Positions 15,068-26,909 of a DNA stretch of 64,000 bases are shown piece after piece. Source of the DNA: Gemmatimonadota bacterium (GTDB lineage: Bacteria > Gemmatimonadota > Gemmatimonadetes > Gemmatimonadales > GWC2-71-9); assembly GCA_016794805.1 (NCBI GenBank), contig JAEUJI010000033.1, positions 4,769 to 68,768 on the forward strand, in the 5' to 3' direction. The position numbers and the translations under genes were made by a program. Every line of letters begins with the position of its first letter. The first letter of the stretch is position 1. The notes under the pieces were generated by a model. It had not been told where the DNA came from, did not search any database, and was given only the letters and a program-made list of their open reading frames with translations.

Positions 15068-17701
15068 CTACTTCCCGCCGCCGGTCCCCCGTACCACCCC
15101 CTCGGCCCGGAGCGACTCCGGGCCGAGGGTCGTTTCGGCCACCGCGCGCACCGCCTCGGCGGTGACCGCCCGGTAGCGCTCCGCGGGAGCGGCCAGCTCC
15201 CCCAGCCCCTCCCCCGCCAGCCACGCCTCCAGCACCTCCCCGGCCACCGCGCCCGCGCGCTGTCGCTGCACCTCGGTCTGGCCGGCGAGGTAATTCACCG
15301 CCTGCGCCAGCTCCTCCGGCGTCACCCGTTCGGCGGCGAACCGGGACAGCTCCACGAGCATCTCCCGCCGCGCCTCCTCCTCCCGCTCCGGTCCGGTGGC
15401 GATGTAGGCGAGGAACGCGCCAGCCCGCGCCTTCTGCCAGCTGGAAGCGACCACCGTGTAGGCCAGGGAGCGGCGGTCGCGCAGCGCCTCGAACAGCCGC
15501 CCGCCGAGCCCGCTCGCCACCGCGCTCCACACTTCCGCCGCGTGCCGCGCGGGATCCCGGCGGGAGGGCCCGGGGAACGCCATTGCAAACGCCGACTGAG
15601 CCTTCTGCCGCACGCTCACCCGGGGAGCCGTCCCCGGTCCGACCCGCCAGGGCACCGGCGTGACCAGCGGGGCACTGACCCGGGTGGCGCCGTCGTCGAA
15701 CACCCCCGCAAGCAACCCGAGGGCGGCCTCCGGGTCCAGGTCTCCCACCGCCACGACGACCCCGCGCGGCGCCAGCAGCGCGCGCCCATGCCAGGCGCGC
15801 ACCTGCTCGGGCGTGAGGTTGGCCAGTTCCTCCGGCGTGCCGAGTGACGGCACCCCGTAGCCCTGGTCGCCGAAGGCCGCGCCGAATGCCAGCTGGAAGG
15901 GATACCGGAACATGTCATCGGTGACCTGGGTCGTCTCCTCGACCAGCAGGCCGCGCTCCGCCAGCACCTGGGATTCCTCGAACCGGGGCGCGGTGAGGAC
16001 CAGGTGCAGCAGCCGCCCCGCCTCGCCGATGGCGGGGGCCAGCACCGAGGTCCCGAAGCCCAGCCAGTCGAGGGTGATGCTGGTGGTGAGGGTACCGCCG
16101 AGGCGCTCGAGGGCGAACGCGAGGCTCGCGGCATCGAGGTCGCCGGCGCCGCGCACCGCGCTCCGGACGGCCAGCGCGCTCACCCCCGCCTGCCCGGAGG
16201 GGTCGAAGGCGGCGCGCGGCACGTAGGTGCCCAGGGTCACCAGCGGCACCCCGGGCTTCCGCCGGACCAGCAGGTCGAAGCCCGGGAGCGCCACGTGATG
16301 CACCTCGGCCACGGGCGCGGTGCGCGGGACGTGGACCGGCCGCACCGGCGGGCTGGTCGTTCCGGCGGCCGGGCCGGGTTCAGCACCCGTTCCGTCCGAA
16401 GCCGAAAAGGTGGCGCCGAGCTCGGCTCCGGTCAGGTCGGCGCCGCGCCCGCGGGGCTGGAAGATCACGGCGCTCACGGCGCCGGGATCGAGGATCGAGG
16501 CCGCGGCCTCGCGGACCTGCCCCGCGGTCGCGGCCAGGAGCTGGGCGAATTCACGGTCCAGCAGCCGGTAGTCACCCAGGGCCTCGGCGCCGGCGAGCGA
16601 TGCCGCCCGGCCGTCCATCTCCTCGAGCCCCCGGGACCAGCGGGCCACGAGCAGCGTGCGGGCGCGGTCGAGTTCCTCAGCGGACGGCCCCTGCTCCGTC
16701 AGCCGGCGGGTTTCCCGGGCCACGGCCGCGAGCACCTGCGGCACCCGGTCGGGGTCGCAATCGGCGCCTACCGAGAAGACGCCCAGTTCGGTCGGGGAGT
16801 AGTGCCAGGCGTTCACCGACGTGGCGAGTCCGGTCTCCCGCAGCGCGCGATAGAGCCAGCTGCCCCGGCCGGCCCCAAGCACGCCGGCGGCGAGATCGAG
16901 CGGGATCGCCCGCTCGTCGAGGGCCGGCACGCCGCGCCAGCCGACTGCGACCTCGGCCTGGGTCACGTCACCGCGCAGGGTGCGCGCCCGGACCTCGTGC
17001 CGGGGCGGCTCGGCCGGCGAGGGATCCACCGCCCCGGGGCCGGGAGCCCAGCCGCCGTAGGCCGCGCGGCCCAGGCGCAGGGCCTCCTCCTCGTCCACGT
17101 CGCCCACGATGGCCACGATGGTGCGGCTGGGGACGTAGCGGGAGGCGTAGTACCCGTGCACGTCCGCGCGGGTGAAGCCCGCAAGCTGCTGCTCGTACCC
17201 GATGCGCCAGCGGCGGATGCGGTGCCGGTCGTACATCACCTCGTGCAGCGTCTCCGCGGTGACGGCGCCGGGGTGATCGAGCTTCCGCTTGGCCTCCTGG
17301 ATGATCACCTGCAGCTCGCGGGCGAGCTCGCCGGCGTCGATCGCGGCGTGCATCAGGGCATCGCTCTGGACGGCGATCGCCTCGGCCAGCCGGGCGGCGG
17401 GGAGGGCGACGTAGTAGGAGGTGTGGTCGTAGGTGGTGGAGGCGTTGAGGTAGCCTCCCACGGACTTGGTCTCCCGGGCAATCTGTCCCACCCCTCGCGT
17501 CGGCGTGCCCTTGAAGAACATGTGCTCCAGCACATGGGAGATGCCGGTCCAGGCATCCGGCTCGTCGAAGAACCCCGCCTTCACGTGGGTGACGACCGCG
17601 GCCACCGGGGCGGAGCGGTCGCGCTGCACCAGCAGGGTGAGGCCGTTGGGGAGGACCTCGCGGCGGACGGCGGCGGTCCAGGGCGGTGCAGGGGTGGTCA
17701 T
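15068..17701 (-). CDS. M16 (insulinase/pitrilysin) zinc peptidase, double-length PqqL-like form
   Basis: Inverted zinc motif HVLEH...E, two tandem M16 halves, 877 aa. I trimmed the start from 17929 to ATG 17701 (MTTPAPPW). Confidence 0.9.
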   Translation of the reverse strand: MTTPAPPWTAAVRREVLPNGLTLLVQRDRSAPVAAVVTHVKAGFFDEPDAWTGISHVLEHMFFKGTPTRGVGQIARETKSVGGYLNASTTYDHTSYYVALPAARLAEAIAVQSDALMHAAIDAGELARELQVIIQEAKRKLDHPGAVTAETLHEVMYDRHRIRRWRIGYEQQLAGFTRADVHGYYASRYVPSRTIVAIVGDVDEEEALRLGRAAYGGWAPGPGAVDPSPAEPPRHEVRARTLRGDVTQAEVAVGWRGVPALDERAIPLDLAAGVLGAGRGSWLYRALRETGLATSVNAWHYSPTELGVFSVGADCDPDRVPQVLAAVARETRRLTEQGPSAEELDRARTLLVARWSRGLEEMDGRAASLAGAEALGDYRLLDREFAQLLAATAGQVREAAASILDPGAVSAVIFQPRGRGADLTGAELGATFSASDGTGAEPGPAAGTTSPPVRPVHVPRTAPVAEVHHVALPGFDLLVRRKPGVPLVTLGTYVPRAAFDPSGQAGVSALAVRSAVRGAGDLDAASLAFALERLGGTLTTSITLDWLGFGTSVLAPAIGEAGRLLHLVLTAPRFEESQVLAERGLLVEETTQVTDDMFRYPFQLAFGAAFGDQGYGVPSLGTPEELANLTPEQVRAWHGRALLAPRGVVVAVGDLDPEAALGLLAGVFDDGATRVSAPLVTPVPWRVGPGTAPRVSVRQKAQSAFAMAFPGPSRRDPARHAAEVWSAVASGLGGRLFEALRDRRSLAYTVVASSWQKARAGAFLAYIATGPEREEEARREMLVELSRFAAERVTPEELAQAVNYLAGQTEVQRQRAGAVAGEVLEAWLAGEGLGELAAPAERYRAVTAEAVRAVAETTLGPESLRAEGVVRGTGGGK

Positions 17702-17720
17702 GATGGAAGGGTAAGGGGGA

Positions 17721-17790
17721 GACGAGAAACGGGAAACGGAGGCCGCGTGCGGCGTACCGTTCCCCGTTTCCCCGCTTTCCCGTTTCCCGC
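17721..17790. repeat. tandem-repeat palindrome built from GAAACGG/CCGTTTC units (terminator-like)
   Basis: GAAACGG x2 (17726-17739) faces CCGTTCC, CCGTTTC and CCGTTTC (17757-17786). It lies between the TPR gene stop and the M16 gene start. Confidence 0.85.
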
Positions 17791-17792
17791 CG

Positions 17793-18911
17793 TTACGGAA
17801 TGATCCGCAACATGCCGGCCCGCACGCTGCCGCGCATGAAGGCCTCCGCGTCCGTGGTAGGGATGACCACCCCCGTCTCCGCGGCGCCGTGGCGGGCCAT
17901 GTCCTCCATGAACTCGGCGAGCGGCGCATCCACCCACTCGTGGTCCGCGTTCTTCATCTGGTCCAGGATCTCCTCCCACGTGCCGCGGAAGGTGCGGCCG
18001 GAGAGGGTGGCCACCGTGTGGGTCCCCACCGGCTGCGGGCGCTTCTGCATCGCGGCCAGCTCGGTGAGCAGGGTGCCGAACAGCTCCAGCTGGGTGGGAT
18101 CGCGCGTGGTGCCGTCGGCCTGCAGCGCCTCGACCTCCGCCAGCATCGTGTCCAGCGGGTCCGGCTCACCGGAGACTTCCAGCAGCCGGGCATGCCAGGG
18201 GCGGAGTTCGGCGTCGTCCTCCCGGAGGCGGAACAGCGTCTTCTTGAGCTCCACGTAGCGCCAGATGCCCAGTTCGTCGAAGTGATCCTCGGGGAGGGTC
18301 TGGTGCAGGTGGTGCATCGCGGCCTCGGACTCGCCACGATCGTAGAGCATGTTGGCCAGGTAGATCCGGGCCTCGCTGTATTGCGGGTCGATCTGCAACG
18401 CCCGGCGCAGCCAATAGAGGGCGCCGCTGTCGTCGTTGAGCCGGTGACAGGCGTACCCGACGCAGGCGGCGGCCTCGGGGCAGTCGGTCTGGGCGTTGAC
18501 CGCGTACTCGAAGAACCGCTGGGCCGCGGCCAGCATCCCCTCCCGGAAGAGGGCGCGGCCGATCTGCAGCATCAGCTCGTGGTCTTCGCGGAATCCGAGC
18601 GCGAGGATGCGATCGAACGAGGCCAGCGCCGGCGGCCGCTGCCCCAGCTTGAGCAGGACCTCCCCGTAGCCCGCGAGGGTATCCTCGTGATCCGCGTCCA
18701 GCGCGAGGGCCTTCTCGAAGCTCTGCCGCGCCCAGGCGTAGTCCTCCCGCGCGAGGAAGGCATAGGCCAGCCCCACGTGGAGTTCCACGGCGTTGGGATA
18801 AAGCTGGAGACCTTCGCGGAGATGTTCGAGTGCTTCGTCGAAGCGGCCTTCGTTGTACAGCTGGTGCGCGTGTTCGTCGTAATCGTCGGAGCTGAGGAAC
18901 CGGTCCGGCAT
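17793..18911 (-). CDS. TPR-repeat protein
   Basis: Repeated A..Y/F..AL..DP TPR pattern (e.g. EARIYLANMLYDRGESEAA); 372 aa from ATG 18911. The remainder of the 914-aa track ORF is antisense to the decarboxylase gene. Confidence 0.8.
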   Translation of the reverse strand: MPDRFLSSDDYDEHAHQLYNEGRFDEALEHLREGLQLYPNAVELHVGLAYAFLAREDYAWARQSFEKALALDADHEDTLAGYGEVLLKLGQRPPALASFDRILALGFREDHELMLQIGRALFREGMLAAAQRFFEYAVNAQTDCPEAAACVGYACHRLNDDSGALYWLRRALQIDPQYSEARIYLANMLYDRGESEAAMHHLHQTLPEDHFDELGIWRYVELKKTLFRLREDDAELRPWHARLLEVSGEPDPLDTMLAEVEALQADGTTRDPTQLELFGTLLTELAAMQKRPQPVGTHTVATLSGRTFRGTWEEILDQMKNADHEWVDAPLAEFMEDMARHGAAETGVVIPTTDAEAFMRGSVRAGMLRIIP

Positions 18912-20563: not shown

Positions 20564-22093
20564 ATGACCTTCCAGCGAAAGCTCCTGCTCGGCGTCTCGC
20601 TGATGGTGCTCCCGGCGCTCCTCATTGGAGTGCAGGCGATCCGCGGCAACGCGCTGGAACGCCGCGCCATCGAGGCCCTGGGCGAGCGCCTGGGCCGGAG
20701 CCGCACCTACGCCGAGCTCGAGACCGCGATGTTCAACCAGACCGAGGTGGTCTGGCGCTACCTCACCGGACTCGACCCCGGGGCGCGGAAGGAGTACCAG
20801 CTTGCCGGCGAGGTGGTGCGGTACTGGTTCGATCGCTGGAAGTCCGAGCTCGGTCCCGAGGAAGCCAGCCTCGCGGAGCCGGTGTGGGCGCTGCAGCAGC
20901 AGTTCGAGACGGTGAGCGACAGCGTCTTCGCGCTGGTGGACCGGGGGGAGCGCCCGCGCGCCTACCGCGCCGCCCAGCTGGAGATCCGCAGCCGGCTGCA
21001 GCCGGCCCTGACCGCGCTTAACCGTCAGGTCTATCGCCGCACCCGCGAATCGAGCGTGTCCGGCGCCTTCACCCGGGTCACGGAGATCGTGCGCACCGAG
21101 CAGCGGAGCCTCATCGCGATCTTCCTGGCGTCGGTCATCGCCGGGCTGGTGTCGGCCTGGCTGCTGGCCCGGAGCCTGGCCCGTCCGATCCGGGAGCTGC
21201 AATCGGCGATGGCCATCGTGGCGGCGGGGGACCTGGAGCACCCGGTGGAGGCGCGGTCCCGCGACGAGATCGGCGATCTCGCGCGGGCCTTCTCCCGGAT
21301 GACCGCGAGCCTGCGCGACTCCCGCAGCGACCAGGACCGGCTCACGGCGGAGCTCGAGGCCAAGGTGGACCAGCTCCAGCGGGCCCAGGCGCGGCTGGTG
21401 CAGTCGGAGAAGCTGGCGTCCATTGGCGAGATGTCGGCCGCCGTGGCCCATGGCCTCCGGAATCCGCTGGCGAGCCTCCGCGCCTCGGCCCAACTGGTGA
21501 TGCGGCACCCCGGGTCCCCGGCGGCGCCGGAGCAGCTGGCGGCGATCATCGAAGAAGTGGACCGGCTGGACCGGCGCATCAGCCACCTGCTCACCTTTTC
21601 CAGGCCGGTGCCGTTCCAGCCCCTGCCTCAGTCCCTGCCCGCGCTGGTGCGACAGGTGCTGCCGGCGTTCCTGGAGCGGGGGCGCGGCGCCGGCATCACG
21701 CTCGACCTGTCCCTGCCGGACGACCTTCCCGAACTCCAGGTGGACGGAGCGAGAGTGGAGCAGACCCTGGTGGAAGTGCTGTCGAACGCCTTTGATGCGA
21801 TGCCTGGCGGGGGGCGGGTCCGCATCGCCGCGGCGCCGGCCCCCGGGGGCGACGGCCAGGCGGGGATCCGCCTGACCGTGGCCGATACCGGCCGCGGCAT
21901 CGCCCCCGAGGTGCTGCCCCACGTGGGGCAGCCGTTCTTCACCACCCGGCCCGAGGGCACCGGCCTCGGCGTGGCCACTGCGCGGCGCTTCGTGGAACAG
22001 CACGGCGGCACGCTGCAGATCCGGAGCGAAGCGCAGGCCGGGACCACCGTCCACCTGTGGCTCCCGCTCACGCCTGCCGGAGTCGTGGCATGA
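20564..22093 (+). CDS. sensor histidine kinase (periplasmic sensor, HAMP, HisKA, HATPase)
   Basis: Two TM segments, HAMP (ARPIRELQSAM), H-box SAAVAHGLRNPL, and DTGRGI/GTGLG boxes. Confidence 0.9.
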   Translation: MTFQRKLLLGVSLMVLPALLIGVQAIRGNALERRAIEALGERLGRSRTYAELETAMFNQTEVVWRYLTGLDPGARKEYQLAGEVVRYWFDRWKSELGPEEASLAEPVWALQQQFETVSDSVFALVDRGERPRAYRAAQLEIRSRLQPALTALNRQVYRRTRESSVSGAFTRVTEIVRTEQRSLIAIFLASVIAGLVSAWLLARSLARPIRELQSAMAIVAAGDLEHPVEARSRDEIGDLARAFSRMTASLRDSRSDQDRLTAELEAKVDQLQRAQARLVQSEKLASIGEMSAAVAHGLRNPLASLRASAQLVMRHPGSPAAPEQLAAIIEEVDRLDRRISHLLTFSRPVPFQPLPQSLPALVRQVLPAFLERGRGAGITLDLSLPDDLPELQVDGARVEQTLVEVLSNAFDAMPGGGRVRIAAAPAPGGDGQAGIRLTVADTGRGIAPEVLPHVGQPFFTTRPEGTGLGVATARRFVEQHGGTLQIRSEAQAGTTVHLWLPLTPAGVVA

Positions 22094-23505
22094 GCACCGG
22101 CACCGTGCTGGTGGTGGACGACGAGCGCACCCTCGCCCGCGCCATCAAGGCCTTCCTCGAGGCCTCGGGCTACGAGGCCACGGTGGCCGACGACGCCGAG
22201 GCCGCGCTGCCGCTGCTCGGCTCGCTCCGGCCGGACGTGGTGTTCACCGACGTACGGCTGCCGGGGATGGACGGGATCGAACTGCTCCGCAGGATCCGCG
22301 AGTTCGATCCGGGCATCCCGGTCGTCGTCATGACCGCGCACGGCTCCATCCAGGGCGCGGTGGAGGCGGTGAAGCTGGGCGCGTTCGACTACCTCAAGAA
22401 GCCGCTCGATCTCGAGGAGCTGAAGCTCCTCGCCGACCGGGCCCGGGAAACCAGCGCCCTCCGGCAGGAGCTCTCCTATTATCGCCAGCAGGCGCTCCGC
22501 GACCAGCCCTTCAGCGACGTGGTGGGGCAGTCCGCCGCCATGCGCGCGGTGCTGGAGCAGGCTCGCCAGATCGCCGCGCTGCAGGACACCCCGCCGGTGC
22601 TCATCACCGGGGAGACCGGCACCGGGAAGGGGCTGGTGGCGCGCACCATCCACGCCTCCGGCCCCCGCGCCGAGAGGCCATTCATCGAAGTGAACTGCAC
22701 CGCCCTCCCGGCCACCCTGATGGAGGCGGAGCTGTTCGGCCACGAGCGCGGCGCCTTCACCGACGCCAAGGAATCCAAGCTCGGCCTGTTCGAGGCAGCC
22801 GAAGGAGGGTTCCTCTTCCTGGATGAAATCGGCGACGTGGAGCTGGCGCTGCAGGGAAAGCTGCTCAAGGCCATCGAGGACCGGGTGGTGCGCCGGGTGG
22901 GTGGGGTCCGGGACCGGAAGATCGACGTGCGCATCCTCGCCGCGACCAACCGGGACCTGGCCCACGAGTCGGAACGGGAGCGGTTCCGCCGCGACCTCTA
23001 CTTCCGGCTCGCGGTGATCATCCTGCACCTCCCCCCGCTCCGCGAGCGCGGCGACGACGTCTATCTCCTCGCCGAGTTCTACCTGCGCCGCTTCTCGACC
23101 AAGTACGGCAAGCCGGTTCGCCGGCTGGACCCGGCGGCTCGGGACCTGCTCCGTGTCTATCCCTGGCCCGGTAACGTGCGGGAGCTGTCCCACGTGATCG
23201 AACGGGCGGTGCTCTGGAGCAAGGGAGCGGAACTCACCCCGGAACACCTCTCCCTGACGATGCCGGGGGGCGCGGCCCCTCGCCGGAGCTCACCCGACGC
23301 CCTCGGCCCGGAACTGCCCGTCGCGGGCGAGCCGCCGAGCCGCCGAGCCGCCGAGCCGGCGCTGACCCTCGACCAGATGGAACGCTCCGCGCTGGAGGAG
23401 GCACTCCGGGAAGCCGGGGGCAACCAGACCCGGGCGGCGCAGCGGCTCGGCATCTCCCGCGACACCCTCCGCTACCGCCTGAAGAAGCACGGTCTGAGTG
23501 GGTGA
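22090..23505 (+). CDS. sigma-54-dependent response regulator (NtrC family bEBP)
   Basis: REC domain (FTDVRLPGMDG), AAA+ GETGTGKG, GAFTDA loop, and Fis-type HTH QRLGISRDTLRYRLKK. ATGA overlap with the kinase gene. Confidence 0.92.
   Translation: MSTGTVLVVDDERTLARAIKAFLEASGYEATVADDAEAALPLLGSLRPDVVFTDVRLPGMDGIELLRRIREFDPGIPVVVMTAHGSIQGAVEAVKLGAFDYLKKPLDLEELKLLADRARETSALRQELSYYRQQALRDQPFSDVVGQSAAMRAVLEQARQIAALQDTPPVLITGETGTGKGLVARTIHASGPRAERPFIEVNCTALPATLMEAELFGHERGAFTDAKESKLGLFEAAEGGFLFLDEIGDVELALQGKLLKAIEDRVVRRVGGVRDRKIDVRILAATNRDLAHESERERFRRDLYFRLAVIILHLPPLRERGDDVYLLAEFYLRRFSTKYGKPVRRLDPAARDLLRVYPWPGNVRELSHVIERAVLWSKGAELTPEHLSLTMPGGAAPRRSSPDALGPELPVAGEPPSRRAAEPALTLDQMERSALEEALREAGGNQTRAAQRLGISRDTLRYRLKKHGLSG
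23329..23360 (+). repeat. octanucleotide tandem repeat (GAGCCGCC)x3 plus GAGCCGGC inside the bEBP coding sequence
   Basis: Read directly from the sequence. It encodes EPPSRRAAEPA in the linker between the AAA+ and HTH domains. Confidence 0.95.
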
Positions 23506-23514
23506 AAACACCCA

Positions 23515-23534
23515 ACTGGGGCCCTTGACCCAGT
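23515..23534 (+). promoter_or_regulatory. dyad ACTGGG-N8-CCCAGT, candidate enhancer (UAS)
   Basis: Perfect 6-bp inverted repeat about 100 bp upstream of the -24/-12 box. The half-site ACTGGG recurs at 23673-23678. Confidence 0.35.
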
Positions 23535-23621
23535 ATGCCCCTGGCGATGGGCAGCGCGGGATCGAACCATAAGTATTTCTTGAACAATGACTTATGAAGC
23601 TGGCCCCCGTATCGGCGATTC

Positions 23622-23637
23622 CGGCACGGCCTCTGCG
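23622..23637 (+). promoter_or_regulatory. candidate sigma-54 promoter of the pqq operon
   Basis: cGGCACG-GCCT-CTGCg against TGGCACG-N4-TTGCW. It lies 86 nt upstream of the pqqA ATG. The AT-rich IR CATAAGT-N15-ACTTATG (23568-23596) lies between it and the dyad. Confidence 0.45.
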
Positions 23638-23722
23638 TTCTTACGGGCGACGTCAGGGATTCCCTCGCCTTGACTGGGTGATCCCACCCAAGTGTTCCAA
23701 CCGCCTCTCACTGGAGTCTTCG

Positions 23723-23797
23723 ATGACCTGGACCAAGCCCGAAGCCGAAGTCGTCGCCGTGACCATGGAAGTCACCGCGTACGTCGCGACCCTGTAA
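23723..23797 (+). CDS. pqqA: PQQ precursor peptide PqqA (24 aa)
   Basis: MTWTKPEAEVVAVTMEVTAYVATL has the W-x-K-P start and the E-x-x-x-Y crosslink motif (EVTAY). GGAG lies 8 nt upstream and pqqB follows. It is hidden in the last 24 codons of the 67-aa track ORF. Confidence 0.85.
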   Translation: MTWTKPEAEVVAVTMEVTAYVATL

Positions 23798-23851
23798 GGC
23801 GCGACGCACCGAACGGGGCTCGCGAATCTCGCGGGCCCCGTTTGCGTTTTC

Positions 23852-24760
23852 ATGGACGTCATCCTGCTCGGCACCGCGGCCGGCGGCGGCTTCCCCCAGT
23901 GGAACTGCTGGTGCCCCTCCTGCCGCGTGGCCCGCGCCGAGCCGGCGCGGGCCCACCCCCGCACCCAGTCGTCGGTGGCGATCTCGGCGGACGGGGCTCG
24001 CTGGTTCCTCCTCAACGCCTCACCCGACGTCCGGGAGCAGCTCCTCCGGCTGGAGGGGCCGCCGGCCGGCGCGGTGCGCCACGTGCCGGTGGAGGGGATC
24101 GTCCCGACCGATGCCGAGCTGGACCACACGATGGGCATCGCGCTGCTGCGGGAGGGGCGGTTGCTGCAGCTCTATGCCACGCGGGCGGTGCTCGAGGTGC
24201 TCAACCACGATTCGCGGATCGTGCCGGTGACCTTCGCCTTTGCCCGGGTGGCGCAGCACGAACTGGCCCTCGAGGCCCCGCGCATGCTGCAGTACCACGA
24301 CGGCACCGACACCGGGCTGGTGCTGACGCCCTTTGTGGTGGCGGGAGATCCCCCCCGCTTCGCCCGGCGGGACCTGCCGGGACACACGGTGGGCGTCCTG
24401 GTGGAGGACCGGCGTACCGGCGGGGTGCTGGCCTTCGTGCCCGGGTGCGGCGCGCTGGACGGCGCGCTCCTTGACCGGCTGGCGCGGGCGGATCTGCTGC
24501 TCTTCGACGGGACCTTCTGGACCGATGAGGAGATGATCGCCCTCGGCCTCTCGGAACGCACCGCGCGGCAGATGGACCACCTGCCGGTGAGCGGGGCCGA
24601 CGGCAGCCTCGAGCGGCTGCGCCGGCTTCCCTGCCGGGAGAAGCTCTACACCCACATCAACAATTCGAACCCGATGCTGATCGAGGACTCCCCCGAACGC
24701 GGCGCGGTGCTCGCCGCCGGCATGCGGGTGGGTGACGACGGCATGCGGTTCCGGATCTGA
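23852..24760 (+). CDS. pqqB: PQQ biosynthesis protein B
   Basis: LGTAAGGGFPQWNCWCPSCR...RTQSS...LNASPD are PqqB hallmarks. Confidence 0.92.
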   Translation: MDVILLGTAAGGGFPQWNCWCPSCRVARAEPARAHPRTQSSVAISADGARWFLLNASPDVREQLLRLEGPPAGAVRHVPVEGIVPTDAELDHTMGIALLREGRLLQLYATRAVLEVLNHDSRIVPVTFAFARVAQHELALEAPRMLQYHDGTDTGLVLTPFVVAGDPPRFARRDLPGHTVGVLVEDRRTGGVLAFVPGCGALDGALLDRLARADLLLFDGTFWTDEEMIALGLSERTARQMDHLPVSGADGSLERLRRLPCREKLYTHINNSNPMLIEDSPERGAVLAAGMRVGDDGMRFRI

Positions 24761-24769
24761 GCCGACCCG

Positions 24770-25519
24770 ATGCCCTCAGCCCTTCGCGCGTCCGAACTGG
24801 CCACCCCGCCCCGGGCCCCGCTGCCCGACCTGAGCCGCCCGCTGACCCCGGACGAACTCGAGGCGGCGCTCCGGAGCTTTCACGGCTCCTACTACGTGGA
24901 GCACCCGTTCCACCGGCAGATGTACGAGGGCACCCTCACGCGGCGGCAGTTCCAGGGGTGGGTGGCCAACCGGCTGGCGTACCAGCGCGTGGTGCCGCGC
25001 AAGGACGGCGCGATCCTCTCCAACTGCCCCGACCCCGACGTCCGCCGGGAGTGGCTGCAGCGGATCGTGGATCACGACGGCACCCGCCCCGGGGAGGGCG
25101 GCATTGAACTCTGGATCCGGCTGGGGGTGGCGCTGGGCGTGCCGCGGGAGGAGATGGAGGACGAGCGTCACGTGCTCCCCGCCGTCCGCACCATCTGCGA
25201 GTCCTATGTCTGGTTCTGCAAGTCGAAGCCCTGGGTCCAGGCCTGCGCCAGCTCGCTCACCGAGCTGTTCGCGCCCCGGATCCACCAGCAGCGCCTGGAA
25301 TCGTTCCCCCGGCACTACCCGTGGATCCCGCCGGAGGCCATGGACTACTTCAAGAGCCGGCTGGTCCAGGCGCCGCGGGACGTGAAGCACGGCCTGGCCA
25401 TCGTGCAGCGGCACTGCACCACCGTCGAGAGCCAGCGCATGGCCTTCGAGGCGCTGCAGTTCAAGCTGGAGATGCTCTGGTCGCTCATCGACGTGATTCA
25501 TCATGCCTATCGCGACTGA
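24770..25519 (+). CDS. pqqC: pyrroloquinoline-quinone synthase
   Basis: HPFHRQMYEGTLTRRQFQGWVANRLAYQ...LQRIVDHDG. Confidence 0.92.
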   Translation: MPSALRASELATPPRAPLPDLSRPLTPDELEAALRSFHGSYYVEHPFHRQMYEGTLTRRQFQGWVANRLAYQRVVPRKDGAILSNCPDPDVRREWLQRIVDHDGTRPGEGGIELWIRLGVALGVPREEMEDERHVLPAVRTICESYVWFCKSKPWVQACASSLTELFAPRIHQQRLESFPRHYPWIPPEAMDYFKSRLVQAPRDVKHGLAIVQRHCTTVESQRMAFEALQFKLEMLWSLIDVIHHAYRD

Positions 25520-26909
25520 CGCCCGCCCGCGCCTCTGGCGCCTGGCCCGCATCGGGCACGACCGGGTGCGGAACCGGCCGGTGCTGCTGTATCCCGAGGG
25601 CGCCATGTTCCTGAACGAGACCGGCAAGGCGATCCTCGAGCTGTGCGACGGCACCCGCAGCGTCGAACAGATCGCGCAGGAACTGGGAACCCGCTACCAG
25701 GCCGATGTGCTGGCGGACGTCAGGGAGTACCTGGCGCTGCTCGGCCGCCGGGATCTGGTCCAGGGCGGCGCACTCCCGTCCGTGCCGGCGCCGGCGCCGC
25801 CCTCCCCCGCCGCCCAGCGGGCCCCGGTCGCGCCGGTCCTCGGCGAGCCCACCACGCTCCTCGCCGAACTCACCTATCGCTGCCCGCTGCACTGCCCCTA
25901 CTGCTCCAACCCGCTCGAGATGTCCCGGGCCGAGGCCGAGCTGTCCACCGACGACTGGAAACGGGTCTTCACCCAGGCCCGCGACCTCGGGGTGCTCCAG
26001 CTGGGACTCTCCGGCGGCGAACCGCTGGTGCGGAAGGACCTCGAGGAGCTGGTGGCCCACGCCCGCCAGGAGGGGCTGTACACCACGCTCGTCACCAGCG
26101 GCCTGGGCCTCACCCGCCAGCGGGCGGAGCGCCTCAAGGCCGCGGGTATCGACCACATCCAGATCTCCTTCCAGGACACCGACCAGGCCAACGCCGATCG
26201 CATCGCGGGTATCAAGCTCGGGCGGCAGAAGCAGGAGGCGGCGTCGCTGGTGAAGGAGCTGGGGCTGGCCTTCTCGGTGAACGTGGTCCTGCACCGCGGC
26301 AACCTCGACCGGCTGGCGGAGATCATCGCCTTTGCGGCGGAGGCGGGCGCCGACCGGCTGGAGCTGGCCAATACCCAGTACTACGGCTGGGCGCTCAAGA
26401 ACCGGGAGATGCTGATGCCGACCCGGGCGCAGGTGGAGCGGTCACGGGTGATTGCGGAGCGCGCGCTGGCGGAGTACCGCGGGCGGATGCAGATCATCTA
26501 TGTCCTGCCGGACTACTACGAGCAGTACCCCAAGCCCTGCTACGGCGGCTGGGGCAACGTGTACATCCTCCTGACTCCCGACGGGCGCGCCCTCCCCTGC
26601 CACGGCGCCACCCAGATCCCCGACCTCGAGTTCGTGGACGTGCGGCGGCACGATCTGGCCTGGATCTGGCGCCAGTCCCCGATCTTCAACGCCTTCCGGG
26701 GCGACCGCTGGATGCAGGAGCCCTGCCGCAGCTGCCCGCGGAAGGGACAGGACTTCGGCGGCTGCCGCTGCCAGGCGTTTGCGCTCACCGGGGACGCGCG
26801 TGCCACCGATCCGGTGTGCAGCCTCTCGCCGAACCACGGGATCATCGAGGCGGCGCTCACCGAGACCACGGCGCCGCTGGAGTATGTGTACCGGGAGGTG
26901 GGGAGGTAG
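25503..26909 (+). CDS. pqqDE: PqqD-PqqE fusion (peptide chaperone plus radical-SAM enzyme)
   Basis: The N-terminal ~90 aa are PqqD-like (VLLYPEGAMFLNETGKAILELCDGTRSVEQIAQEL). A Pro/Ala linker follows, then radical SAM CPLHCPYC and a SPASM-type C-terminus. One uninterrupted frame. Confidence 0.88.
   Translation: MPIATDARPRLWRLARIGHDRVRNRPVLLYPEGAMFLNETGKAILELCDGTRSVEQIAQELGTRYQADVLADVREYLALLGRRDLVQGGALPSVPAPAPPSPAAQRAPVAPVLGEPTTLLAELTYRCPLHCPYCSNPLEMSRAEAELSTDDWKRVFTQARDLGVLQLGLSGGEPLVRKDLEELVAHARQEGLYTTLVTSGLGLTRQRAERLKAAGIDHIQISFQDTDQANADRIAGIKLGRQKQEAASLVKELGLAFSVNVVLHRGNLDRLAEIIAFAAEAGADRLELANTQYYGWALKNREMLMPTRAQVERSRVIAERALAEYRGRMQIIYVLPDYYEQYPKPCYGGWGNVYILLTPDGRALPCHGATQIPDLEFVDVRRHDLAWIWRQSPIFNAFRGDRWMQEPCRSCPRKGQDFGGCRCQAFALTGDARATDPVCSLSPNHGIIEAALTETTAPLEYVYREVGR

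Follow-up and report, generated by a model that had tools for sequence, protein, structure and literature searches.

The pqqABCDE operon for the synthesis of pyrroloquinoline quinone (PQQ) in a soil bacterium of the order Gemmatimonadales is likely to be under sigma-54 control, with a promoter at pqqA that the adjacent regulator activates from tandem palindromes upstream. The probability of this reading is put at roughly 0.8. The operon is found in a 64-kb stretch of contig JAEUJI010000033.1 (71% GC), which is called the window here. A sensor histidine kinase (HK) and an NtrC-family bacterial enhancer-binding protein (bEBP) are encoded upstream of pqqA, pqqB, pqqC and a single pqqD-pqqE open reading frame (ORF). 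This gene layout is the one described in the initial annotation of the window, and it agrees with matches in Pfam and NCBIfam. The spacer from the bEBP stop codon to pqqA is 217 bp long (Table 1). A sigma-54 promoter, an upstream enhancer and an AT-rich spacer had been proposed to tie the HK-bEBP pair to pqqA. This proposal is supported computationally, by synteny, motif conservation and orientation-specific enrichment in 17 genomes and ~45 spacers.

Conservation of the HK-bEBP-pqqA Arrangement

A scan of species-representative genomes revealed 18 Gemmatimonadales loci at a bEBP identity of 68–79%. The other 62 loci, almost all from Acidobacteriota, show 41–47% identity. The comparative set is composed of 17 species-level genomes and metagenome loci, with ~45 unique spacers in total, and the Gemmatimonadales sample consists almost entirely of genomes assembled from metagenomes.

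In 17 of the 18 Gemmatimonadales genome loci, the pqqA gene directly follows the bEBP gene, and the encoded peptides are near-identical. The synteny, whose conservation had been suggested as a check, is thus kept in related genomes. The HK gene is present upstream wherever the contig reaches that far, while pqqB, pqqC and pqqD/E are seen downstream in most loci. The genes flanking the block on both sides vary among loci. This indicates that the HK-bEBP-pqq block itself is the conserved unit.

The Predicted Sigma-54 Promoter

The box in the window is GGCACG-N4-CTGC at positions 23623–23636. Its sequence cGGCACGgcctCTGCg holds GG and GC exactly 10 nt apart. The box had been reported to end at 23635, which is one base short; its start was correct, and so was its distance from pqqA, as 86 nt separate TGC from the pqqA ATG at 23723.

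GGCAC[AG]-N5-TGC is found on the sense strand of each of the 17 genome spacers, 36–115 nt upstream of the pqqA ATG. In addition, ~40 metagenome pqqA loci all contain a GG-N10-GC box of the GGCAC, GGCAT or GGTAC type. A strict promoter pattern matches 16 times on the sense strand of the spacers (4.6 kb), against 0.017 matches expected, and never on the antisense strand. Only one match is seen in the other 137 kb of these loci, both strands included. Within the window, the counts of additional sigma-54 boxes or palindromes in the consensus scan are at chance level, two perfect palindromes excepted. As for RpoN, no RpoN box was found within the 64-kb window. RpoN is present in the only Gemmatimonadetes genome surveyed (PMC3372290, Table 1).

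Based on the usual 12-nt distance from the -12 GC, transcription would start near 23648. In the long-leader loci, the block GGGCG(T/A)CGTC is conserved at this place.

Tandem Palindromes Upstream of the Promoter

When the spacers are aligned, a 16-bp palindrome, TGGGTG-N4-CACCCA, emerges as the repeat. It usually appears in two copies, the starts of which are 18–20 bp apart. In the window, the distal copy (site 1) begins 7 nt before the start coordinate of the region initially annotated, within the end of the bEBP gene. Site 1 is present in the orthologous spacers and is perfect in 28 of 45. The second copy, 18–20 bp from the first, is present in most orthologous spacers.

The enhancer was originally described as the dyad ACTGGG-N8-CCCAGT. 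This dyad is indeed present at 23515–23534, but it is not the true unit and corresponds only to the degenerate copy 2 of TGGGTG-N4-CACCCA (site 2). Loss of the dyad from orthologous spacers, which had been named as a refuting outcome, is not seen, since they keep it in the form TGGG-N8-CCCA. Perfect inverted repeats in the window number 50 for 6-N8-6 and 20 for 7-N15-7, and the two dyads first annotated, if taken alone, are within chance expectation.

The palindrome as now defined is rare, and its occurrence exceeds chance, as do the AT-rich segment and the conservation of these elements and of the -24/-12 box among orthologous spacers. Sites 1 and 3 are the sole matches at 0 or 1 mismatch in the 64 kb of the window; site 3 is located downstream of the promoter. 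With up to 1 mismatch, 30 palindromes are seen within the spacers, none in the other 137 kb of the loci, and none in 539 kb of control loci. The description of the two-component system as "dedicated" to PQQ synthesis overreaches, as the absence of any other palindrome applies to the 64 kb and to 137 kb of related sequence, and whole genomes were not scanned.

In nearly all spacers, the centers of the tandem palindromes are at -114 to -130 and -94 to -111 from the promoter. Relative to the -24 GG, the distal center is at about -128 or -117, and the proximal center is at about -110 or -99. The two distance classes are ~11–12 bp apart, which is about one helical turn. Helical phasing of the enhancer sites is only suggestive, because the distance classes follow clades and no sharp periodicity at 10.5 bp emerges from the circular statistics. 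In one locus, L009, the bEBP gene is separated from the enhancer sites by an insertion of ~1 kb (L009:5442-6450) that contains a minus-strand ORF of 348 codons. Despite this insertion, the sites keep their distances of -118 and -100 to the promoter. This indicates that the enhancer belongs to the promoter, not to the bEBP gene. Conserved dyads of this kind, two or more of them at some 80–150 bp upstream, are what is expected of an upstream activating sequence of a sigma-54 promoter, and they are predicted to act as such.

Could the dyad at 23515–23534 be an intrinsic terminator or attenuator hairpin of the bEBP transcript instead of a protein-binding site? Its GC-rich stem of 6 bp lies 10 nt after the stop codon, and the terminator scan reports a minus-strand version of it, followed by a T run. 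However, the plus strand continues with ATGCCCC and offers no U tract, and no minus-strand gene ends there. Besides, the orthologues hold at that position a palindrome conserved in sequence, not a covarying stem. As a terminator, the dyad was rejected for the lack of a T tract on the plus strand, and this explanation is hardly credible.

Association of the Palindrome with the bEBP Subfamily

A metagenome scan for the tandem palindrome yielded 120 contigs, ~45 of which are Gemmatimonadales bEBP-pqqA loci. About 10 contigs, from other lineages, encode bEBP homologues at 40–49% identity, and there, too, the tandem palindromes are found where the bEBP gene ends (L082, L100, L131, L177, L095, L116, L199, and L200 are such loci). 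Here, the palindromes are located ~0–60 bp after the bEBP stop codon. A sigma-54 promoter (e.g., CTGGCATGAGTATTGCT) follows ~100–130 bp beyond the palindromes, and then unrelated genes. Judged by eye and from the N-termini only, the products of these genes look like a polytopic membrane protein, prepilin-like proteins, a protein with a signal peptide and some resemblance to solute-binding proteins, and an SCO-like protein. Unlike the pqq module, the homologue loci contain neither the third palindrome nor a long structured leader, and their targets are not related to PQQ. They look like a reusable cassette of HK, bEBP and enhancer.

The palindrome-bearing bEBP homologues have the helix GISRD(T/A)LRYRxKK in common. 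Five control homologues with an extractable C-terminus (four from Acidobacteriota and one from Roseomonas) differ in that helix, and the palindrome is absent from all control loci. Since the palindrome accompanies bEBP homologues in front of unrelated targets, it is tied to this bEBP subfamily. These facts constitute indirect but independent evidence that TGGGTG-N4-CACCCA is the binding site of the subfamily, as predicted here.

In ~55 metagenome contigs, similar tandem palindromes are found with no bEBP gene nearby. The surroundings there are small phage-like ORFs or coding repeats. Tandem TTGGGTG(A/T)AT(A/T)CACCCAA is seen in medium-GC contigs of this kind (L085, L086, L088, L113, L124, L129, L140, L157, L166, L186, L192, and others).

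Such contigs would be expected if the palindromes were operators of another transcription factor, encoded elsewhere, with the adjacent bEBP acting on other genes or sequences. This is quite unlikely. In several lineages the palindromes accompany bEBP homologues with different targets, and the sigma-54 promoter is always downstream. Palindrome-linked homologues share the recognition helix, whereas homologues of similar identity without this form of the helix are also without the palindrome. The position and the tandem spacing are, moreover, those of NtrC-type enhancers.

The pqqA Leader

Downstream of the promoter, the transcribed leader contains a hairpin, P1, and a third palindrome, site 3 (Table 1). 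P1 is flanked by the predicted start, which falls within the conserved block GGGCGTCGTC, and by site 3. Its helix has 8 pairs; 96% of the cells in the alignment are paired, and five pairs are changed on both sides. None of 500 shuffles matched the observed scores, and sliding the partners lowered the pairing to 29–50%. The same helix was predicted independently by RNAalifold, and it is also part of the minimum-free-energy fold of the window leader. Frequent G-U pairs point to the sense strand. The covariation and the tolerance of G-U pairs indicate that P1 is an RNA structure. A scan of 23400–23900 against Rfam returned only noise (E values 0.3–0.9), so the leader is not a described RNA family.

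Site 3 is the best-conserved copy of the palindrome and is perfect in 26 of 32 long leaders. These leaders, 82–115 nt in length, belong to the larger subclade. In all 32 of them, the center of site 3 is 58–60 bp after the first G of the -24 GG, while the distance from site 3 to the ATG varies from 32 to 59 nt. The half-site ACTGGG and the words CACCCAA and CCTTGAC had been noted to recur downstream of the box at 23669–23694. These words are present there, but the recurrence is really the third palindrome copy at a fixed distance from the promoter. CCTTGAC is not a conserved word; it is the 3' arm of the covarying hairpin P1. In the RNA, site 3 could form a hairpin as well (P2). The pairs of P2 never covary, as would suit a protein-binding site read by its sequence, with the hairpin in the RNA being incidental.

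It can be considered that site 3 and P1 act at the RNA level only, as two 5' stem-loops which protect the pqqA message or set its translation, with no protein bound at +28 to +43. P1 indeed behaves as an RNA element, and it lies next to P2, with both helices part of the minimum-free-energy fold. Another conserved hairpin follows pqqA: all 17 pqqA-bearing loci have one of a similar kind, at -27 to -40 kcal/mol, within 75 nt after the gene. PqqA is consumed, one peptide per PQQ cofactor, and a stable pqqA message would therefore make sense. On the other hand, the 12 half-site bases of P2 match those of the upstream sites, which are not transcribed, and the great majority of its copies are perfect without any covariation. 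Where P2 varies, at the innermost pair, the pairing is broken and not compensated. The distance of site 3 is fixed to the promoter, whereas its distance to the ATG varies by 27 nt, and the third copy is absent from a subclade with short leaders. An action at the RNA level only is therefore rather unlikely. Most likely, site 3 binds a further regulator dimer that modulates initiation, and this is preferred over a hairpin with a stabilizing role only. The leader hairpins and the hairpin after pqqA probably stabilize the abundant pqqA message as well; the latter probably gives an excess or a stabilized form of this message.

A more specific version is that the palindrome at +28 to +43 is a working third activator site which requires its exact promoter distance. 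We regard this version as possible but doubtful. If it is true, a hexamer might be assembled round the closed complex from three dimers on the DNA, of which two lie upstream of the polymerase and one just beyond it on the downstream side, or the downstream dimer might cap the output. Such an arrangement of enhancer sites, for which no description exists at sigma-54 promoters, would be combined with a structured pqqA leader, and PQQ supply in a major soil order would hinge on a periplasmic signal.

GGAG or GGAGG is kept at the Shine-Dalgarno position in the orthologues. The second subclade, with short leaders and without the third palindrome, includes L006, L008, L010, L011, L012, L087, L110, L123, and others. 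Its leaders share a conserved 12-bp palindrome, GTGGTCGACCAC, ~20–27 nt upstream of the pqqA ATG, and the spacing to the ribosome-binding site is roughly constant. In one sub-group (L001, L002, L004, and L007), site 3 and the ribosome-binding site are separated by an extra GC hairpin of the form GGGCC-N4-6-GGCCC, whose loop varies. This hairpin is not seen in the window.

The AT-Rich Segment and Evidence against the Proposed Control

Between the enhancer and the promoter, the spacer is AT-rich. A GC content as low as that of 23560–23600 is found in only 36 of the 63,960 41-nt segments of the window. The mean GC content over 45 spacers is 0.48 at -60 to -20 from GG, compared with 0.62–0.69 in the flanks. 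The segment was annotated as a bend with a core resembling a binding site of integration host factor (IHF), lying in the inverted repeat CATAAGT-N15-ACTTATG. The repeat is present in the window at 23568–23596, together with the core AACAATGACTTA. Of these features, only the AT-rich dip is general. An IHF site is defined as WATCAANNNNTTR; the core CAA-N4-TTR is missing from most spacers, including those of the close relatives L154 and L181. The occurrences of CAA-N4-TTR cluster at -32 to -35 and -47 to -50, and the background is 0.009 per 56 bp. The AT-rich segment is probably a bend or flexible region. Comparison of the spacers supports a bendable segment, but not a defined IHF site.

Several observations weigh against the control of pqqA by the adjacent bEBP, or against parts of it. 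The box in the window differs at three positions from TGGCACG-N4-TTGCW and was missed by a consensus scan allowing 2 mismatches. In the window, site 2 deviates from the consensus at 3 positions and is a weak copy. The IHF-like core CAA-N4-TTR occurs in 12 of 45 unique spacers only. The AT-rich inverted repeat is not conserved; it is not kept in L014, L154 or L181, and it is only partly kept in a relative with an 89% identical bEBP. The leader of the window alone folds no more stably than shuffled sequences (z = -0.35), so the support for P1 is comparative. The metagenome loci were picked by their upstream palindromes, and they are unbiased for the promoter and site 3 but biased for the enhancer. 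L005 is the sole exception to the synteny, with neither spacer nor pqqA. There, the bEBP stop codon TAG is followed by CGC and then by the pqqB ATG (L005:5440-5460). This arrangement could be a deletion or an assembly artefact.

Lastly, there is no terminator between the bEBP gene and pqqA, and read-through could therefore contribute to pqqA transcription. One might go further and suppose that pqqA owes its expression to transcripts running on from the HK and bEBP genes, or to an unrecognized sigma-70-type promoter, the -24/-12 match being unused. The plus strand has no T-tract terminator after the bEBP gene, the window box is not a perfect consensus, and promoters of Gemmatimonadota are uncharacterized, all of which would suit this explanation. 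Against it, no orthologous spacer lacks the box, which is restricted to the sense strand and enriched ~thousandfold. It keeps a fixed distance from the conserved leader elements, and no sigma-70-like site was found in the scan of 23300–24000. We therefore consider it very improbable that the -24/-12 match is unused.

Table 1. Positions of the genes, the candidate regulatory elements and the RNA elements in the window.
Feature	Positions	Strand	Basis and remarks
Sensor histidine kinase, TM1-periplasmic four-helix bundle-TM2-HAMP-HisKA-HATPase_c	20564–22093	+	Pfam, AF2 model
NtrC-family bEBP, REC + sigma-54 AAA+ (GAFTDA) + HTH_8	22090–23505	+	Pfam
Candidate enhancer site 1 (distal), perfect, TGGGTGAAAACACCCA	23499–23514	.	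0 mismatches; overlaps bEBP stop codon; center 116 bp upstream of -24 GG
Candidate enhancer site 2 (proximal), degenerate, TGGGGCCCTTGACCCA	23517–23532	.	Core of dyad 23515–23534; starts 18 bp after site 1
AT-rich segment holding the IHF-like core AACAATGACTTA (23583–23594)	23560–23600	.	34% GC vs. 71% in the window
Predicted sigma-54 promoter, cGGCACGgcctCTGCgt	23622–23638	+	GG 23623–23624, GC 23635–23636; GG-N10-GC spacing
Predicted transcription start, ~23648, inside the conserved block GGGCG(T/A)CGTC	23646–23650	+	Usual 12-nt distance from -12 GC
P1 RNA hairpin, arms 23652–23658 and 23668–23674	23652–23674	+	Covariation, RNAalifold
Site 3, perfect palindrome, TGGGTGATCCCACCCA, in the transcribed leader, predicted +28 to +43	23675–23690	.	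0 mismatches; hairpin P2 possible in RNA
Shine-Dalgarno GGAG, 6 nt 5' of pqqA ATG	23713–23716	+	Read from the sequence
pqqA, PQQ precursor peptide MTWTKPEAEVVAVTMEVTAYVATL (E-X3-Y)	23723–23797	+	Pfam PqqA, 22.2 bits (cut-off 21.1)
GC-rich hairpin and U tract in the pqqA-pqqB gap, putative partial terminator or stabilizer	23810–23844	+	Terminator scan, 16-pair stem
pqqB (23852–24760), pqqC (24770–25519), pqqD-pqqE single ORF (25503–26909)	23852–26909	+	NCBIfam equivalogs

Proposed Mechanism

From the arrangement of these elements, the following mechanism can be proposed. The HK, co-transcribed with the regulator gene, would sense a periplasmic ligand via its four-helix-bundle domain and phosphorylate the regulator. 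Regulator dimers would then occupy the two tandem palindromes TGGGTG-N4-CACCCA, ~116 and 98 bp upstream of the -24 element. The AT-rich, bendable segment would let the bound oligomer contact the closed complex, and ATP hydrolysis by the regulator would open the promoter. As a result, pqqA, and with pqqA the pqqBCDE genes, would be transcribed from the sigma-54 promoter with a start near 23648. Site 3 might bind a further regulator dimer that tunes initiation, either as the third dimer of a hexamer or as a limit on output. The analysis establishes the identities of the genes and the positions, conservation, enrichment and covariation of the motifs, while binding, sigma-54 dependence, the start site, the signal and the function of site 3 are inferred.

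Comparison with Known Systems

Systems of the NtrB-NtrC/glnAp2 type are composed of an HK, an activator with REC, AAA+ and helix-turn-helix domains, two dyad sites ~100–130 bp upstream of GG-N10-GC, and a bendable spacer. The module described here resembles NtrB-NtrC with glnAp2 and similar systems in the domains of the kinase and the activator, in the paired upstream dyads, in the bendable spacer, and in the regulator genes next to the target. The target is the PQQ precursor gene here, whereas it is nitrogen, dicarboxylate or stress genes there. Other differences are the motif TGGGTG-N4-CACCCA, the first site lying over the stop codon of the activator gene, the third site at a fixed distance in the leader, and GAFTDA in place of GAFTGA. 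The fixed downstream site and the covarying leader hairpin can be considered as variant features.

FlbD of Caulobacter crescentus is a sigma-54 activator whose ftr sites serve in activation or repression according to where they lie with respect to the promoter (PMC3930126). It provides a precedent for an activator site that works away from the usual place upstream. FlbD differs in being controlled by FliX, not by a cognate kinase, and the ftr sequences are unrelated to the palindrome. In the present case, in contrast to FlbD, a site at about +36 joins an upstream tandem pair at the same promoter.

In Proteobacteria, the regulation of pqq includes induction by alcohols, and MxbDM is involved in Methylobacterium. 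The proteobacterial operon is the same pqqABCDE, with pqqA first and a hairpin after pqqA favoring excess pqqA message. To our knowledge, the switching-on of PQQ synthesis is known for only a few Proteobacteria. The nearest published case found is in Pseudomonas aeruginosa, where the effect of CbrAB/Crc on pqq is indirect; CbrB is a sigma-54 activator (PMC3480352). Searches of the literature, including full texts, revealed no -24/-12 promoter of pqqA, no adjacent NtrC-type pair, and no direct control of pqqA by rpoN, sigma-54 or NtrC. This agrees with the remark in the initial annotation that sigma-54/NtrC-type control is not the described mode of pqq regulation. The proposed circuit is of the classical NtrC type, and no earlier report of one on this target was found.

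Periplasmic alcohol and sugar dehydrogenases, lanthanide-dependent ones among them, use PQQ as their cofactor, and PQQ underlies phosphate solubilization by soil bacteria. Gemmatimonadales are mostly uncultured. Published studies deal with lanthanide-dependent enzymes in soil and weathered granite, and with bacteria that use PQQ without making it and import it with high affinity. A conserved module of sensor, activator and promoter before pqqA offers a concrete regulatory circuit and a defined DNA motif for regulon searches. The ligand of the HK sensor domain would reveal the environmental cue for PQQ production in Gemmatimonadales. The fixed downstream site, in turn, is a small and clean case for the study of enhancer geometry at sigma-54 promoters.

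Genes of the Module and Their Surroundings

The bEBP matches Response_reg (5.8e-33), Sigma54_activat (5.5e-63), AAA_lid_14 and HTH_8 (1e-15) in Pfam. Its translation contains the Walker A motif GETGTGKG, DEIGD, and GAFTDA. The last of these is the sigma-54 contact loop of the GAFTGA type, with G5 changed to D. In a strict pattern search, GAFTDA was kept in 83 of 120 bEBP relatives, and it is the usual form in the orthologues. GAFTDA is also the natural form in FlgR, a sigma-54 activator validated experimentally (PMC3162934). The best NCBIfam matches of the bEBP are AtoC and NtrC. Each match is under the equivalog cut-off, so the bEBP is an orthologue of neither. The best 120 relatives are 72–98% identical to it, and the named ones are all from metagenome-assembled genomes of Gemmatimonadetes or Gemmatimonadales.

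The ATG of the bEBP gene overlaps the HK stop codon as ATGA (22090–22093). HAMP, HisKA and HATPase_c were identified in the HK by Pfam, and the H-box, G1 and G2 motifs are seen in the translation. In orthologous loci, the HK gene is kept 5' of the bEBP gene, at 51–67% identity. Adjacent, overlapping and conserved together with the bEBP gene, it has the features expected of a gene for the cognate kinase, and the phosphotransfer between the two proteins is putative.

No named Pfam sensor domain was found in the sensor region of the HK (20564–21343), even at E = 10. The AlphaFold2 (AF2) model of residues 1–260 is all-helical, with a pLDDT of 85. The best Foldseek matches of this model are chemoreceptor, NarQ and four-helix-bundle ligand-binding domains. 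According to the model, the N-terminus would be composed of TM1, a periplasmic four-helix bundle, TM2 and HAMP, an assignment that reaches only the generic NarQ- or Tar-like class. The sensor family is narrow, with ~200 clusters, and its named members are from Gemmatimonadetes or Gemmatimonadales.

The pqq genes are identified. The pqqA peptide with its E-X3-Y motif is followed by PqqB (344.9 bits), PqqC (301.3 bits), PqqD (73.2 bits) and PqqE (530.2 bits), all above the cut-offs of the NCBIfam equivalogs. In the window, pqqD and pqqE are fused into one ORF of 468 codons, while they give separate matches in several related loci.

Among the ORFs scanned between 12 and 52 kb of the window, no PQQ-dependent dehydrogenase was found near the operon. 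An M16 peptidase of 953 aa is encoded on the minus strand at 15068–17929, 2.6 kb upstream of the HK gene. It shows a weak PqqF-like match below the NCBIfam cut-off. This peptidase, or the adjoining TPR gene, is retained near the module in L001, L007 and L017. The M16 peptidase may process PqqA.

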